From Candidatus Magasanikiibacteriota bacterium (GTDB lineage: Bacteria > Patescibacteriota > Patescibacteriia > Magasanikbacterales > UBA922): a stretch of DNA of 64,000 bases. The translations under genes were made by a program, and so were the position numbers. Location of the stretch: contig DMXO01000005.1 of the NCBI GenBank assembly GCA_003482855.1, positions 227,719 through 291,718 of the forward strand, read 5' to 3'. Shown here one piece after another: positions 42,952 through 48,427 of this stretch. Each line of letters starts with the position of its first letter. The first letter of the stretch is position 1. The notes under the pieces were generated by a model. That model was not told where the DNA came from, did not search any database, and was given only the letters and a program-made list of their open reading frames with translations.

Positions 42952-43374
42952 ATGCCTCTCTCATGTTCGTCAGCCCTTATCTGTTGTATGGATTTCCGCC
43001 TAACCTCTGCTTTGCATGCATGGATGGAAAAAGAGGGGATTATGGATGACTGTGATGTTATCTCCGTTGCTGGAATTAGCAAAGCTATAGCTGAAGACAA
43101 AGAATCTAATGATGCTAAGTTTATATTGAAACAGATAGAACTATCATCAAAATTACATGACATTAAAACACTATATTTAATCCATCACACAGACTGTGGT
43201 GCATATGGCGGTCATAACGCATTTCAAAGTATTGATACCGAGAAACAAACATATATACATGATATGGAAAAGGTCAAGAAAGTTATTCATGAGAGCTTTT
43301 CTGGGCTAAAAATTAGATGTATTCTTGCTGAAATGCATTCACCAGAAAATATACAGTTTGTATCACTTAATTAG
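42952..43374 (+). CDS. beta-carbonic-anhydrase-like small protein (CxDxR...HxxC motifs)
   Basis: 140 aa. CMDFR at residue 12 and HHTDCGA at ~78, with beta-CA-like spacing. Confidence 0.35.
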   Translation: MPLSCSSALICCMDFRLTSALHAWMEKEGIMDDCDVISVAGISKAIAEDKESNDAKFILKQIELSSKLHDIKTLYLIHHTDCGAYGGHNAFQSIDTEKQTYIHDMEKVKKVIHESFSGLKIRCILAEMHSPENIQFVSLN

Positions 43375-43898: not shown

Positions 43899-43930
43899 AA
43901 GCCCGCTCACTGCGGGTTTAGGTGTTTTTT
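43899..43930 (+). terminator. intrinsic terminator
   Basis: CCCGC-tcact-GCGGG followed by a T-rich run. Confidence 0.5.
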
Positions 43931-45679
43931 ATGAAATATAATACAAAATTGACATTCAAAATATTTTGGCAACATGCAAGCCGTTATAAATTGGCTATGT
44001 TTGTACTGAGTACAACCATTATTATGGCTGGCAGTCTTGCTATTATTGAGCCTCTTTTTTACAAGAAATTTTTTGATGTACTTGTTGCTGGAGGATCTCG
44101 TGAAGTGCTTGTTTCGTTGTTGGGGACTATTTTGACTTTATATCTTATTGAGTGGGCATTGTGGCGAATTGCTGGTTTTATAAATAGTTATTTTCAGACA
44201 CGCGTAATGGGTGATTTATCTATTACTTGTTTTAACTATTTACACAAACATTCTTTTAGTTTTTTCAATAATAATTTTGTTGGCTCACTGGTTAAACGAG
44301 TAAACCGTTTTTACCACGCCTTTGAAGGTGTTGCTGATGCCTGTACATGGGATTTATTGCCAATTATTGTTGATGTCATTCTAGTTATTATTGTATTGTC
44401 TACGCGCAGTCCTTTTTTGGGTGTGGGATTGGGTATATGGGTTACAATTTTTTGCCTTGTCAATTATGCATTTAGCAGATACAAACTTAAGTATGATGTA
44501 GAGCGTAGTGAAATGGATAGCAAAGTTACGGGGATATTGGCAGATACGATTACCAATCATTCAAATGTTAAGTTATTTGTTGGATACGATAGAGAGAAAA
44601 AATATTTTGAGAGAATGACACGTATACTCAACAAGATGAGGAAATTTACATGGGATATATCGAGTGTTTTTGAAGCTTTTCAAATGCTACTCATGATATG
44701 TTTGGAAATAGGTATATTTTATTTTGCTATTTCTCTATGGGAAAAAGGTGTTTTGACAGTTGGTGATTTTGTGCTCATCCAAGCTTATTTGTTACGTGTG
44801 TTTATGAAATTGTGGGACGTAGGCCGCATCATTAGACGTTTTTATGAACATCTGGCCGACGCAGAAGAAATGACTGAAATACTTGATCAACCCCATGATA
44901 TTTTAGATGTAAAAAATGCAAAAAGGCTTGTAGTCTCAAATGGACAAATTGAGTACAGAAATGTAAATTTTTATTACCACAAGACTAGAAAAATTATTGA
45001 CCATTTCAACTTGACTATACATCCGCAAGAAAAGATAGCTTTTGTTGGACCATCAGGAGCTGGTAAATCTACTATTGTTAAATTATTGCTACGGCAACAC
45101 GATATCACTGATGGTACAATAGAAATAGATAACCAACGAATTTCTCATATTACTCAAGAAAGTCTCTGGGAAAATATCAGTCTTGTACCTCAAGATCCTA
45201 TACTTTTCCATAGGACGCTTATGGAAAATATTCGTTATGGCAGACCAGACGCGACGGATGGAGAAGTGAAAGATGCTGCAAAAAAAGCGCATTGTCATGA
45301 ATTTATTAATGAATTTCCAGAAAAATATGATACATATGTCGGTGAGCGTGGTGTTAAGTTGTCTGGTGGAGAACGCCAAAGAGTCGCTATCGCCCGTGCA
45401 ATCTTGCGCAATGCCCCAATTCTTGTGTTAGATGAAGCAACGAGTAGTCTTGATTCTGGGTCAGAAAAAATGATCCAGGATGGTCTTGATGTACTTATGA
45501 AAGGAAAGACAGTCATCGTAGTCGCGCATAGATTGTCTACCATCATGCGTATGGATCGTATTGTGGTCATAGATCATGGCAAAGTAATGGAAGAGGGAAC
45601 ACATGTAGAACTTCTGAAAAAGAAGAAAGGCCTTTATAGCAAGCTGTGGAAATTGCAGGCTGGTGGTTTTATAGAGTAA
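43931..45679 (+). CDS. ABC transporter permease/ATPase (MsbA-like exporter)
   Basis: 6-TM domain and NBD. Walker A GPSGAGKST, LSGGERQRVAIARA. Start reassigned from the GTG at 43922 to ATG 43931. Confidence 0.85.
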   Translation: MKYNTKLTFKIFWQHASRYKLAMFVLSTTIIMAGSLAIIEPLFYKKFFDVLVAGGSREVLVSLLGTILTLYLIEWALWRIAGFINSYFQTRVMGDLSITCFNYLHKHSFSFFNNNFVGSLVKRVNRFYHAFEGVADACTWDLLPIIVDVILVIIVLSTRSPFLGVGLGIWVTIFCLVNYAFSRYKLKYDVERSEMDSKVTGILADTITNHSNVKLFVGYDREKKYFERMTRILNKMRKFTWDISSVFEAFQMLLMICLEIGIFYFAISLWEKGVLTVGDFVLIQAYLLRVFMKLWDVGRIIRRFYEHLADAEEMTEILDQPHDILDVKNAKRLVVSNGQIEYRNVNFYYHKTRKIIDHFNLTIHPQEKIAFVGPSGAGKSTIVKLLLRQHDITDGTIEIDNQRISHITQESLWENISLVPQDPILFHRTLMENIRYGRPDATDGEVKDAAKKAHCHEFINEFPEKYDTYVGERGVKLSGGERQRVAIARAILRNAPILVLDEATSSLDSGSEKMIQDGLDVLMKGKTVIVVAHRLSTIMRMDRIVVIDHGKVMEEGTHVELLKKKKGLYSKLWKLQAGGFIE

Positions 45680-45721
45680 GTGATATACTTATCTCATATC
45701 ATACATCTAACATAAACTTAT

Positions 45722-45865
45722 ATGGAATGTGAAAAATGTGGGGTAGAACTTACTGATGAAAATCACTGTTGTAGCGGTGGCACATGTTGCAAAGAGTGTT
45801 CACCAAATTGTAAAAGTGACGACTGTGGTCCTGAATGCCAGGAGTGTGGTTGTGGAGAAGAATAA
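45722..45865 (+). CDS. small cysteine-rich peptide (47 aa, 13 Cys), unannotated in ORF track
   Basis: MECEKCGVELTDENHCCSGGTCCKECSPNCKSDDCGPECQECGCGEE. Own intrinsic terminator at 45869-45900. Metallothionein-like, zinc-ribbon-like or a modified-peptide precursor. Confidence 0.5.
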   Translation: MECEKCGVELTDENHCCSGGTCCKECSPNCKSDDCGPECQECGCGEE

Positions 45866-45868
45866 TTT

Positions 45869-45900
45869 TATCACCCCATTTTTGGGGTGATTTTATTTTA
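45869..45900 (+). terminator. intrinsic terminator after the Cys-rich peptide gene
   Basis: TCACCCC-attttt-GGGGTGA followed by TTTTATTTT. Confidence 0.7.
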
Positions 45901-45914
45901 AATATTTAGTATAT

Positions 45915-46640
45915 ATGCGTTCATATTATTCAGTATTATTTTTTGGAGCTGTTCTTTTGTTTATGGGACAAAGTTGTACAGAAACATCTCAACCAACACA
46001 GACACCGGAAATAAATCCTAATGACCAAACATTAAACGTCGTATCTTCATTCGAAGAATGTATAAAAGCTGGTTACCCGGTAATGGAGAGTTCTCCGCGT
46101 CAATGCAAAACCCCCGAGGGGAAAAATTTTATTGAGGATATTATCCTAACACCTGTTGGACAAGAGGTTGTAAATACTGCACCCGAAGATACAATAGAAA
46201 CACCATCTGTAAAGAAGCCAGTAGCTCCTGTGGTAAAGCCAACTACTGTAGTTTTACCAGACGCCATATATTATGACGAAGAAGGTTTTCCATTAAATCC
46301 AGTGGAAATGCAAGAATTTACCAATTCAGCTGGCGTTCTTTTTTACTATGTTGAAGGTGAGTGGTTGCCGGAAGAATATGTATATCCTTATCGTGATGGT
46401 GATATTGATACTATTCCTTCACCCGATTATAATGATTCTGATATTCAAGAAGATTATACTGCAGACAGCCCATCACGTAGGTTACCCGATGTTCCCATTA
46501 TAATAGAAGAAGATGTTTATGTAGACCCAAATGCATGTTCATTTGAAGGGGATAGTTATACGTCTGGAGAAAATACATACTACTGCGTTGATGGTATTTG
46601 GACACACGAGGATTATGTTTATCCATATCAAAATTTATAA
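45915..46640 (+). CDS. hypothetical secreted protein with internal repeat G(E/I)W..E(E/D)YVYPY
   Basis: 241 aa, signal peptide, acidic. Two copies of the ...W..EEYVYPY... motif. Confidence 0.5.
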   Translation: MRSYYSVLFFGAVLLFMGQSCTETSQPTQTPEINPNDQTLNVVSSFEECIKAGYPVMESSPRQCKTPEGKNFIEDIILTPVGQEVVNTAPEDTIETPSVKKPVAPVVKPTTVVLPDAIYYDEEGFPLNPVEMQEFTNSAGVLFYYVEGEWLPEEYVYPYRDGDIDTIPSPDYNDSDIQEDYTADSPSRRLPDVPIIIEEDVYVDPNACSFEGDSYTSGENTYYCVDGIWTHEDYVYPYQNL

Positions 46641-46663
46641 AAATTAGTCTTTAATTTATATAT

Positions 46664-47614
46664 ATGCGTCTACGATACATGTATGTGTGGGGTATCTCTC
46701 TTTTGGGAGGATTATTAATGCTTGGTGCCGCATGCAGCCCAACAGCACCTGTTGAGGAACAAAATGCCAAACCTGAAACAGGCGGTGGCCAAGCTTGTAG
46801 CTACTATGTAAACGGAGTACAACAAAACTGGCGTTGTGAAAACGATCAGTGGTGTGGAACACAGTCTGGTGATTGTAGAGATGTACCATTTTGTAATGCA
46901 AATACTGATTGTACTACAAATCAAGTTTGTGTAAATGGGTATTGTGGACCTTCACAACAAACTAATCAGCAGGGCTCACCTTGCAGTTCAAATGAGCAGT
47001 GTATTTCAGGTAAATTATGTTCAAATGGTGTCTGCGTTCCTGCAGAACAAGTACTTCCATCTGATCCAAACACTGGCGAATTGCTTTGTAACTCAGATGC
47101 ACAGTGTTGGAATGGAAAAGTGTGTGTGGATAGCCATTGTGTAGTACCCACAACTCCCACAAGTGGGATAGGGTCTTCTTGTACTTCAGATGGTCAGTGT
47201 GGTACAGGAGTTGCTTGTTTTCAAGGGCGTTGTACCTCAGTTCCATCAAGTTGTAATTATCATCCTGAGTGTTTGAGCGATAATTTTGTGTGTTCAAATC
47301 ATACCTGCGTATGGCCTGGTCAAAGTGGACATACATGTAGTAACACAGATGGAGATAGATGGCATTGTCTGAATGCCCAGGCATGTGGAGGAGCATTAAA
47401 TGAATGTTTAACGCCAGGCTCGCCAACTCCCATTACTGAAATAAACTGTGCAAATGATAGCGACTGTGGAACGGGGAATAAATGTAATGGTTTCACTTGT
47501 TATACGCCACTTTACAATCCTTCTTCATGTACAACAGATGCACAGTGTGTAGAAAAGATGTCATTTTGCCAAAATAATGTATGTATCTTTGCCCCGGGAG
47601 GTAATGCGGATTGA
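46664..47614 (+). CDS. cysteine-rich lipoprotein with ~8 tandem 4-Cys modules (C-x4-[QED]C-x4-5-C-x3-C)
   Basis: 316 aa. Signal peptide with lipobox-like LMLGAAC. About 50 Cys. Module repeated, e.g. SPCSSNEQCISGKLCSNGVCVP, LLCNSDAQCWNGKVCVDSHCVVP, SSCTSDGQCGTGVACFQGRCTSV. Confidence 0.6.
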   Translation: MRLRYMYVWGISLLGGLLMLGAACSPTAPVEEQNAKPETGGGQACSYYVNGVQQNWRCENDQWCGTQSGDCRDVPFCNANTDCTTNQVCVNGYCGPSQQTNQQGSPCSSNEQCISGKLCSNGVCVPAEQVLPSDPNTGELLCNSDAQCWNGKVCVDSHCVVPTTPTSGIGSSCTSDGQCGTGVACFQGRCTSVPSSCNYHPECLSDNFVCSNHTCVWPGQSGHTCSNTDGDRWHCLNAQACGGALNECLTPGSPTPITEINCANDSDCGTGNKCNGFTCYTPLYNPSSCTTDAQCVEKMSFCQNNVCIFAPGGNAD

Positions 47615-47651
47615 TACATATAGTATTTACAAATATAATTCGAATAACAAC

Positions 47652-47682
47652 AAAAAAGGGCTGTACTACTGCCCTTTTTTTG
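47652..47682 (+). terminator. intrinsic terminator
   Basis: AGGGC-tgtactact-GCCCT followed by T7. Confidence 0.65.
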
Positions 47683-47881
47683 TTTAACATTGACAAGATA
47701 ATTTATATAATGCATACTATATTTGTATTAATTAATAACAGTATACATATGATCTGTCCTAGAAATTTAGGAGGCGGTGGCTGTGGTTGTTAATCAGTCT
47801 TGTACCGTGCGACAAAACCTCACAAAAAATTATGTGAGGTTTTGTTTGCCTATAGTTTTCAAAATTGATACAATTAAATTA

Positions 47882-48427
47882 ATGGATTCAATTATGCACC
47901 CATATATACCTATAGTACTTGGAACTGCTCGAAAAGGGCGGCAATCTGAGCATGTGGCACAATATATATACAACACACTCAAAAACAATAAAGAGGCTAT
48001 TTTTGAGCTTGTGGATGTGCGTAATTACCTTGTCGAATCTCGAACTATACCTCCGTGGGAAAACAGTAACATAGCCAAACCATGGCGAGACATTGTAGCA
48101 AAATCTTCAGCTTTTATTTTTGTTGTGCCTGAATATAATAGAGGTTATCCAGGAGAATTCAAGATGTTGCTCGATCAGGAGTTTAAAGGATATAACAAGA
48201 AACCTGCACTGATAGTAAGCGTTTCATCCGGTGGCTTCGGTGGTGTACGAATGGCTGAACATTTAATTCCCACATTACGATATATGGGGTTTCATCTTTT
48301 ATCTCAAGATATACAAGTACCAAAGGTAGAAGAGTTTGTGAAAATGAGTATGGAAGAAAAAGATCAAACACTGAAAGAGAAGATAGAGAAAATGGTAGAT
48401 GCCCTTATAGAAAAAAAGAATGACTAA
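47882..48427 (+). CDS. NADPH-dependent FMN reductase family flavoprotein
   Basis: Start reassigned to ATG 47882 (MDSIMHPYIPIVLGTARKGRQSEH). Flavodoxin-like; AFIFVVPEYNRGYPGEFK motif. Confidence 0.7.
   Translation: MDSIMHPYIPIVLGTARKGRQSEHVAQYIYNTLKNNKEAIFELVDVRNYLVESRTIPPWENSNIAKPWRDIVAKSSAFIFVVPEYNRGYPGEFKMLLDQEFKGYNKKPALIVSVSSGGFGGVRMAEHLIPTLRYMGFHLLSQDIQVPKVEEFVKMSMEEKDQTLKEKIEKMVDALIEKKND

Follow-up and report, generated by a model that had tools for sequence, protein, structure and literature searches.

The window, the whole stretch of 64,000 nucleotides analysed here, carries a 47-codon gene for a very small, Cys-rich and strongly acidic protein. That the gene is real is virtually certain. 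On sequence comparison, its product belongs to a small protein family that is restricted to Magasanikbacteria-like bacteria of the CPR and falls in no described family. The family is best interpreted as new and lineage-restricted, though of a familiar general type, the small Cys-rich, putatively metal-binding proteins. Our main reading of the product, with a probability of about 0.55, is a cytoplasmic protein built on putative metal–thiolate bonds, in which a zinc-ribbon-like N-terminal module is followed by a metallothionein-like tail. The genomes of CPR bacteria are tiny, and a large part of the small genes conserved in them lacks both annotation and characterisation. A 47-codon gene that is conserved and autonomously transcribed in such a genome is thus probably of importance to the cell. 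Should the product prove to be a metal-thiolate protein, the bacterial metallothionein-like families would gain an independent one, and there would be a first handle on metal or thiol homeostasis in Magasanikbacteria, which are ultra-small groundwater bacteria.

The 47-codon gene and its expression signals

The open reading frame starts with ATG and its translation is exactly MECEKCGVELTDENHCCSGGTCCKECSPNCKSDDCGPECQECGCGEE, as the preliminary description had it. The Cys count given there, 13 (28%), was one too high; the chain has 12 Cys residues (25.5%), at positions 3, 6, 16, 17, 22, 23, 26, 30, 35, 39, 42 and 44. The N-terminal CxxC and the CC and CxC pairs that had been pointed out are present, and the CxxC, the CC and the terminal CxC are conserved in the relatives. 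Given the base composition, the probability of at least 12 Cys codons in 47 is about 2.6 × 10−8, or about 1.6 × 10−5 after correction for the 643 stop-free stretches of at least 40 codons in the six frames, among which this one has the highest Cys fraction. The Cys density is not due to chance. Coordinates are collected in Table 1, where loci with an L number, L026 aside, are syntenic pieces of related genomes, flanked by the ATP-synthase operon on one side and by an AddA-like helicase gene on the other.

Table 1. Positions of the gene, its signals, its neighbours and related features
Feature	Sequence	Coordinates	Strand	Remarks
Pro_CA_2 ('putative carbonic anhydrase') gene	window	42952–43374		
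ABC half-transporter, 585 aa	window	43922–45679		ABC_membrane + ABC_tran; upstream of the 47-aa gene
Extended −10-like element TGaTATACT, inferred promoter	window	45681–45689	+	Read from sequence; 33 nt before ATG
AT-rich 5′ leader without Shine–Dalgarno motif	window	45690–45721	+	Read from sequence
CDS of the 47-aa, 12-Cys acidic micro-protein	window	45722–45865	+	ATG start; stop codon included
Intrinsic terminator	window	45870–45901	+	Hairpin 45870–45891; T-rich tail 45892–45901
Cys-rich repeat ORF, 316 aa	window	46664–47614		
Segment aligning twice in L001	window	46769–47125		Within the 316-aa ORF
STnc320 (Rfam) match	window	47635–47685		Almost certainly chance
Family member	L011	1432–1560		No gene call on record
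Family member	L014	4829–4972		
Family member	L017	902–1030		Omitted from recorded gene calls
Pro_CA_2 gene	L019	4114–4533		
CsrA-like ORF	L019	5240–5593	−	
Pro_CA_2 gene	L025	4535–4954		
Second small Cys-rich ORF, 54 aa	L025	5142–5306		Directly 3′ of the peptide gene
Second small Cys-rich ORF, 50 aa	L028	5198–5350		Directly 3′ of the peptide gene
Rejected pattern match	L026	407–514		In a 530-aa protein

Gene calls for the identical protein exist on at least 15 contigs, which come from JGI, ENA and Logan assemblies. The protein is missing from the NCBI protein sources, where the neighbour DCS29_04380 (MAG TPA, Candidatus Magasanikbacteria) is present. The gap in small-ORF annotation, which also takes in the family members of L011 and L017, looks systematic, and methods of annotating small ORFs could usefully be tested on this family. 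Ten same-species contigs show zero differences in the ORF and its 100-nt flanks and are, being identical in DNA, uninformative on variation.

The promoter-like AT tract of the preliminary description held in a modified form. A generic sigma-70 scan upstream of the ATG found no −35/−10 pair; the element that is present is an extended −10-like one, located directly after the stop codon of the ABC exporter gene and missed by the scan because it has no −35 match. A −10-like hexamer (TATACT, TATAAT or TAAAAT) occupies positions −34 to −38 relative to the ATG in seven of nine distinct homologous loci and is kept regardless of which gene is upstream. Transcription is predicted to begin about 7 nt past 45689 and to end near 45900. 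The terminator, earlier placed at 45869–45900, was recovered within one base as a hairpin and T-run. The hairpin starts 5 bases 3′ of the stop codon, contains 9 bp with 5 G–C pairs (−15.4 kcal/mol, z = −3.5) and is followed by TTTATTTT. A similar hairpin with a T-run is located 3′ of the orthologues in L014, L019, L022, L024, L027 and L030. Overall, an own terminator is usual across the loci, with a second small ORF following directly instead in L025 and L028. The presence of an own −10-like element and terminator amid changing neighbours argues for a stand-alone function.

The missing Shine–Dalgarno motif is normal for this genome, since such motifs are nearly absent window-wide (GGAG, GAGG or AGGA within 20 nt upstream in 3 of the 40 ORFs of at least 200 aa). 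Start regions in the window are plainly AT-rich. An Rfam scan of 44000–48000 returned nothing relevant. The match to STnc320, a Salmonella sRNA, falls between genes, past the Cys-rich lipoprotein gene, and scores 24 bits against a gathering threshold of 50 (E = 0.22).

Relatives, conserved residues and selection

Diverged relatives were reached by synteny with the downstream 241-aa protein and then by alignment-derived patterns and a profile. The patterns were scanned against collections of genomes and metagenomes, and the profile was searched as well. The relatives amount to about 20 distinct sequences of 39–47 aa, every one of them in Candidatus Magasanikbacteria-like (CPR) contigs; the member in L014 is MQCEKCSVELNDENRCCDGGTCCKSCVPNCDSEECGPECKDSGCCGE and that in L011 is MKCIKCDSSLSEENKCCDEGTCCNSCCNCADGYSDPECGCNE. 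Those with names are annotated as 'hypothetical protein' of Candidatus Magasanikiibacteriota or Parcubacteria. A word-indexed search with the single peptide found the identical protein only, and viral contigs held no relatives. Among 1.8 billion representatives, a full HMMER scan recovered no match, not even the query itself, probably because the query is short and compositionally biased. One pattern match, in L026, was rejected as a low-complexity chance hit; it is a CCDGGTCC...CC stretch in a 530-aa protein of high GC (0.64). A preprint (doi 10.1101/2020.06.25.172213, Fig. 3A) aligns the C-terminus of Drosophila MtnF with a protein from Ca. Magasanikbacteria and reports similarity by PSI-BLAST; its text gives no accession for that protein.

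In the 14-member alignment, C3, C6, C17, C23, C26, C30, C42 and C44 are invariant and two more Cys positions are nearly so, C16 among them. The preliminary description would have been undone by Cys positions that were not preserved in homologous loci; 8–10 of them are kept across the roughly 20 diverged relatives. Conservation extends to residues other than Cys, with K5 and K24 invariant and N14, G20 and T21 nearly invariant. G19 is substituted in several members, so the GG pair is not invariant. About half of the family has C26-C27-x-C29 in place of C-x3-C. Beyond C30, the tail differs between members in how long it is and how many Cys residues it has (10–13 Cys in the whole chain), and the C-x-C end is always kept.

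Selection was analysed on a 24-codon core in eight orthologues. Values of pS are 0.42–0.95 (near saturation) and those of pN, for most pairs, 0.10–0.25; dN/dS is about 0.1–0.3 where it is computable. The mean pairwise difference by codon position is 0.20/0.19/0.48, the third position changing 2.4 times as much as the first and second. Only this reading frame is stop-free in all eight orthologues. The conservation, the synonymous saturation and the single open frame together identify a protein-coding gene under purifying selection.

The second small Cys-rich ORF found in L025 and L028 contains 8 Cys residues, arranged as CxxC-x9-CPxC-x2-C-x2-CC-x-C-Y, and then a long acidic tail. Aligned to the family with hhalign, it gives a probability of 65% (E = 6e-5 over 26 columns), and its sequence suggests that it is probably a diverged tandem paralogue. 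The window lacks it, and Pfam, NCBIfam and PDB sequence searches with it were empty.

Composition, predicted fold and putative metal binding

Across 17 members, Cys makes up 21–30% of the residues and the net charge is −3 to −9. The 17 chains have one aromatic residue in total (a Tyr), 1–4 aliphatic residues each, and 0–2 His residues at positions that are not conserved. None of them has a signal peptide or a hydrophobic N-terminus. With no hydrophobic core, and with a location in the reducing cytoplasm indicated by the absence of a signal peptide, metal-thiolate folding would be the only plausible structure. The N-terminal 30 residues contain two CxxC knuckles (C3/C6 and C23/C26), invariant in the 14 aligned members, and the two CC pairs face each other across the GGT turn. 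The AF2 model of the window protein has a mean pLDDT of 74.5 (about 80 over residues 1–30), with β-bridges at residues 2, 9, 15 and 23; that of a 39-aa member has a mean pLDDT of 64.6, with hairpins at 2–9 and 14–24. Confidence is only moderate for both. A Foldseek comparison with the PDB gave nothing significant (best E about 6–10), the non-significant matches being Zn–Cys modules (PacI, a FYVE domain, a RING domain and ZFAND5), which are taken as a lead only.

A search against metallothionein and RiPP-precursor families, which had been suggested as a check, matched no family. Pfam gave nothing at E ≤ 1 for the window protein and nothing at E ≤ 10 for any of the 14 members, including the metallothionein, rubredoxin, desulforedoxin, YHS/TRASH and ferredoxin models. 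NCBIfam, with its RiPP precursor models, gave no match at E ≤ 10, and PDB sequences gave none.

In the proposed arrangement, an independently transcribed micro-gene would give a strongly acidic cytoplasmic product of 39–47 aa. Its N-terminal module (C3-x2-C6 ... C16C17 ... C22C23-x2-C26 ... C30) would form a zinc-ribbon-like pair of β-hairpin knuckles and nucleate the fold, with the length-variable C-terminal tail and its C-x-C end supplying further thiolates to a multi-metal cluster. By analogy with M3Cys9 and M4Cys11 clusters and with the Zn4Cys9His2 cluster of SmtA, the 10–13 Cys residues would hold about 3–4 divalent ions (Zn or Cd) or more Cu(I). The protein may then act as a metal buffer, store or detoxifier in the fashion of a metallothionein. 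Few or no aromatic residues are part of the classical definition of a metallothionein. The family has the size of the operational metallothionein class (39–47 aa), the high Cys content in the form of CC, CxC and CxxC, the few aromatics and the lack of a hydrophobic core; the composition of the 17 members thus agrees with the operational description of a metallothionein as a small Cys-rich metal-sequestering protein (PMC7387436). The variable Cys residues of the tail and the tandem 8-Cys paralogue are typical of metallothionein-like families. Both the metallothionein-like and the zinc-ribbon candidates of the preliminary description fit the invariant CxxC, the Cys content, the acidity and the variable Cys tail, and they probably describe two halves of one protein.

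Several points count against a metal buffer: no family model or solved structure matches significantly, the AF2 models are of moderate confidence, no metal-responsive regulator or heavy-metal transporter is a constant neighbour, and His is not conserved. K5, N14, G20, T21 and K24 also equal the Cys residues in conservation, which would fit a zinc finger with a specific protein partner too. A structural micro-protein of this type, with one or two Zn(Cys)4 sites and a fold that binds and regulates a protein or nucleic acid and buffers no metal, is possible though on balance unlikely. The 8 invariant Cys residues are exactly the number for two tetrathiolate sites, the tandem paralogue also has exactly 8 with a canonical CxxC...CPxC pair, and regulators of similar size are documented (PMC2253796, PMC6483171). 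On the other hand, the negative charge makes nucleic-acid binding unlikely, no constant neighbour gene suggests a partner, and the extra Cys residues of the tail, up to 13 in total, would be superfluous in a structural finger. The haloarchaeal Brz/CPxCG proteins and Com of phage Mu resemble the new family in that they have fewer than 70 aa, CxxC knuckles and stand-alone genes that are often unannotated (PMC2253796, PMC10117724, PMC6483171). They differ in having 4 (occasionally 8) Cys residues and usually basic or neutral binding surfaces, whereas the new family has 10–13, CC pairs included, and is strongly acidic.

An iron or redox role was weighed on the same residues. The ligand pattern of desulforedoxin is a CxxC followed by an adjacent CC, and the arrangement found here recalls it. 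A small, acidic, Cys-rich protein whose 8 invariant Cys residues could ligate two clusters might serve as an electron or Fe–S carrier in an anaerobic fermenter, with either Fe(Cys)4 sites of the rubredoxin or desulforedoxin type or Fe–S centres, and an FMN reductase gene is close to the peptide gene in several loci. We regard this as improbable, as none of the 14 members matches rubredoxin, desulforedoxin or Fer4 in Pfam at E ≤ 10, the CxxCxxCxxxCP motif is missing and the chains lack the aromatic residues of a typical rubredoxin core.

The TRASH motif is reportedly C-X2-C-X19-22-C-X3-C. The window protein (C3-x2-C6-x19-C26-x3-C30) fits this spacing, as does roughly half of the family; the CCxC subgroup is off spacing, the 14 members have no Pfam YHS/TRASH match and there are many extra Cys residues. 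PMC4178888, citing Ettema et al. 2003, links the TRASH/YHS domain to metal sensing and trafficking.

Returning to the metal-thiolate reading, only SmtA/BmtA and MymT are bacterial metallothionein families with an investigated function (PMC7387436). SmtA is described in the same source, which cites Blindauer 2001, as a zinc-finger-like fold inside the multi-metal thiolate cluster Zn4Cys9His2. The SmtA/BmtA proteins (SmtA of Synechococcus and the PflQ2 metallothionein of Pseudomonas; PF02069) are, like the product proposed here, small, cytoplasmic and Cys-rich, and the gene proposed here would be small and stand-alone. The new family differs in that it is CPR-restricted, has no PF02069 match, has 10–13 Cys residues as compared to 9, lacks conserved His ligands (of the Cys9His2 type) and aromatics, and has no SmtB-type regulator near the gene. 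MymT, which binds Cu(I) in Mycobacterium tuberculosis, is likewise lineage-restricted, very small and Cys-rich and escaped annotation; its sequence and Cys pattern are unrelated to those of the new family, and it is copper-induced. MymT shows that bacterial metallothionein-like proteins arise independently of SmtA (PMC7387436).

Neighbouring genes

An ABC exporter upstream of the gene had been described, and it is there. Its best match among solved half-transporters is NaAtm1 ('ATM1-type heavy metal exporter', 4mrn), with 318.5 bits and a small margin over ABCB6 (309 bits) and Sav1866 (305.8 bits), and it is below every NCBIfam cut-off, that of MsbA included. Judged by its sequence, the exporter is a generic ABCB-type half-transporter, and the similarity to NaAtm1 may be taken as a weak lead towards a metal role. 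The exporter gene is directly upstream of the peptide gene in the window, L014 and L027, 0.9–1.4 kb downstream of it in L030 and L025, and not within reach in L011, L019 and L028; only some 5 of the 8 genomes show the adjacency. A Cys-rich peptide gene beside an ABCB-type half-transporter with NaAtm1 as best match is reminiscent of the Atm1/HMT1 export of thiol peptides (glutathione and phytochelatin). The two differ in that the NaAtm1 match is barely above generic exporters, the adjacency is partial and the peptide is ribosomally made. A more specific version of our reading, in which a CPR-specific metallothionein with a CC-ligand zinc-ribbon nucleus and an Atm1-like exporter form a metal detoxification pair where they are adjacent, is improbable. 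If true, the pair would be analogous to phytochelatin/HMT1 or glutathione/Atm1 and would give organisms that are presumed unable to make glutathione a thiol buffer encoded by a gene.

The exporter also bears on the suggestion that the peptide is the precursor of a modified or secreted product, either a RiPP or a leaderless bacteriocin-like peptide, which would leave the cell through the transporter where the two genes are close. The peptide is similar in length to the SCIFF/ranthipeptide precursors (six Cys in forty-five residues) and, like them, Cys-rich. What defines a SCIFF precursor is a neighbouring radical SAM maturase together with a Cys-rich core at the C-terminus; here no maturase or family match was found, and the conserved part is the N-terminus. 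Eight distinct contexts with Pfam annotation contain no radical SAM, YcaO or lanthipeptide enzyme, and no ORF of at least 120 aa in the 64-kb window has a CxxxCxxC motif. A C39 peptidase domain is missing from the exporter, whose gene is absent near the peptide gene in L011, L019 and L028; NCBIfam precursor models do not match, and the peptide is acidic and non-amphipathic, with no invariant GG and no signal peptide. We consider a peptide precursor very unlikely.

Downstream of the gene, two secreted Cys-rich or repeat proteins had been noted. Both ORFs, of 241 and 316 aa, have lipoprotein-like N-termini, and Cys-rich repeats (DUF7107/Dickkopf_N-like) are found in the second. In the window, L014 and L011, the gene for the 241-aa protein comes after the peptide gene; in L017 it comes before it, and the other loci lack it. 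With a short Cys-dense ORF, a terminator 5 nt on and then genes for Cys-rich secreted proteins (window, L014 and L011), the ORF could be a Cys-sensing leader peptide, in which stalling at the 12 Cys codons modulates the terminator and so controls the lipoprotein genes. This is extremely improbable: purifying selection acts on the amino acid sequence beyond the Cys codons, the MFE and centroid folds contain no antiterminator pairing that competes with the terminator stem, and the downstream genes vary (AddA or CsrA in L019, the paralogue in L025 and L028, others in L027 and L030).

The Pro_CA_2 gene adjoins the peptide gene in L019 and L025 and is two genes off in the window. Pro_CA_2 is a family of presumed zinc enzymes, and the association is confounded by shared gene order. 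The eight contexts contain no metal-responsive regulator or P1B ATPase near the peptide gene, and no heavy-metal transporter is consistently adjacent to it. A firm coupling to the ABC exporter, the 241-aa lipoprotein or the Pro_CA_2 gene was rejected, as each is missing from some loci and close relatives share gene order in any case. The link to the exporter and the downstream Cys-rich lipoprotein that the preliminary description had implied is not constant, with both absent or displaced in several genomes.

The Cys-rich repeat lipoprotein has 316 aa in the window and 468–473 aa in otherwise 99%-identical strains (L001 and L002). The part of its gene that aligns twice in L001 indicates an indel of about 475 nt, which is either variation in repeat copy number or an assembly collapse.

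L019 (CAZRUM010000007.1, GC 0.37) is titled 'uncultured Gammaproteobacteria bacterium'. It is syntenic with the window, with identities of 73% for atpC, 56% for Pro_CA_2 and 65% for the AddA-like helicase, and in view of this synteny with a Magasanikbacteria window the label of the MAG is probably wrong. In the same locus, the CsrA-like ORF (MLILTRRVGQRIRIGDDIII...) converges on the terminator region just downstream of the peptide gene.
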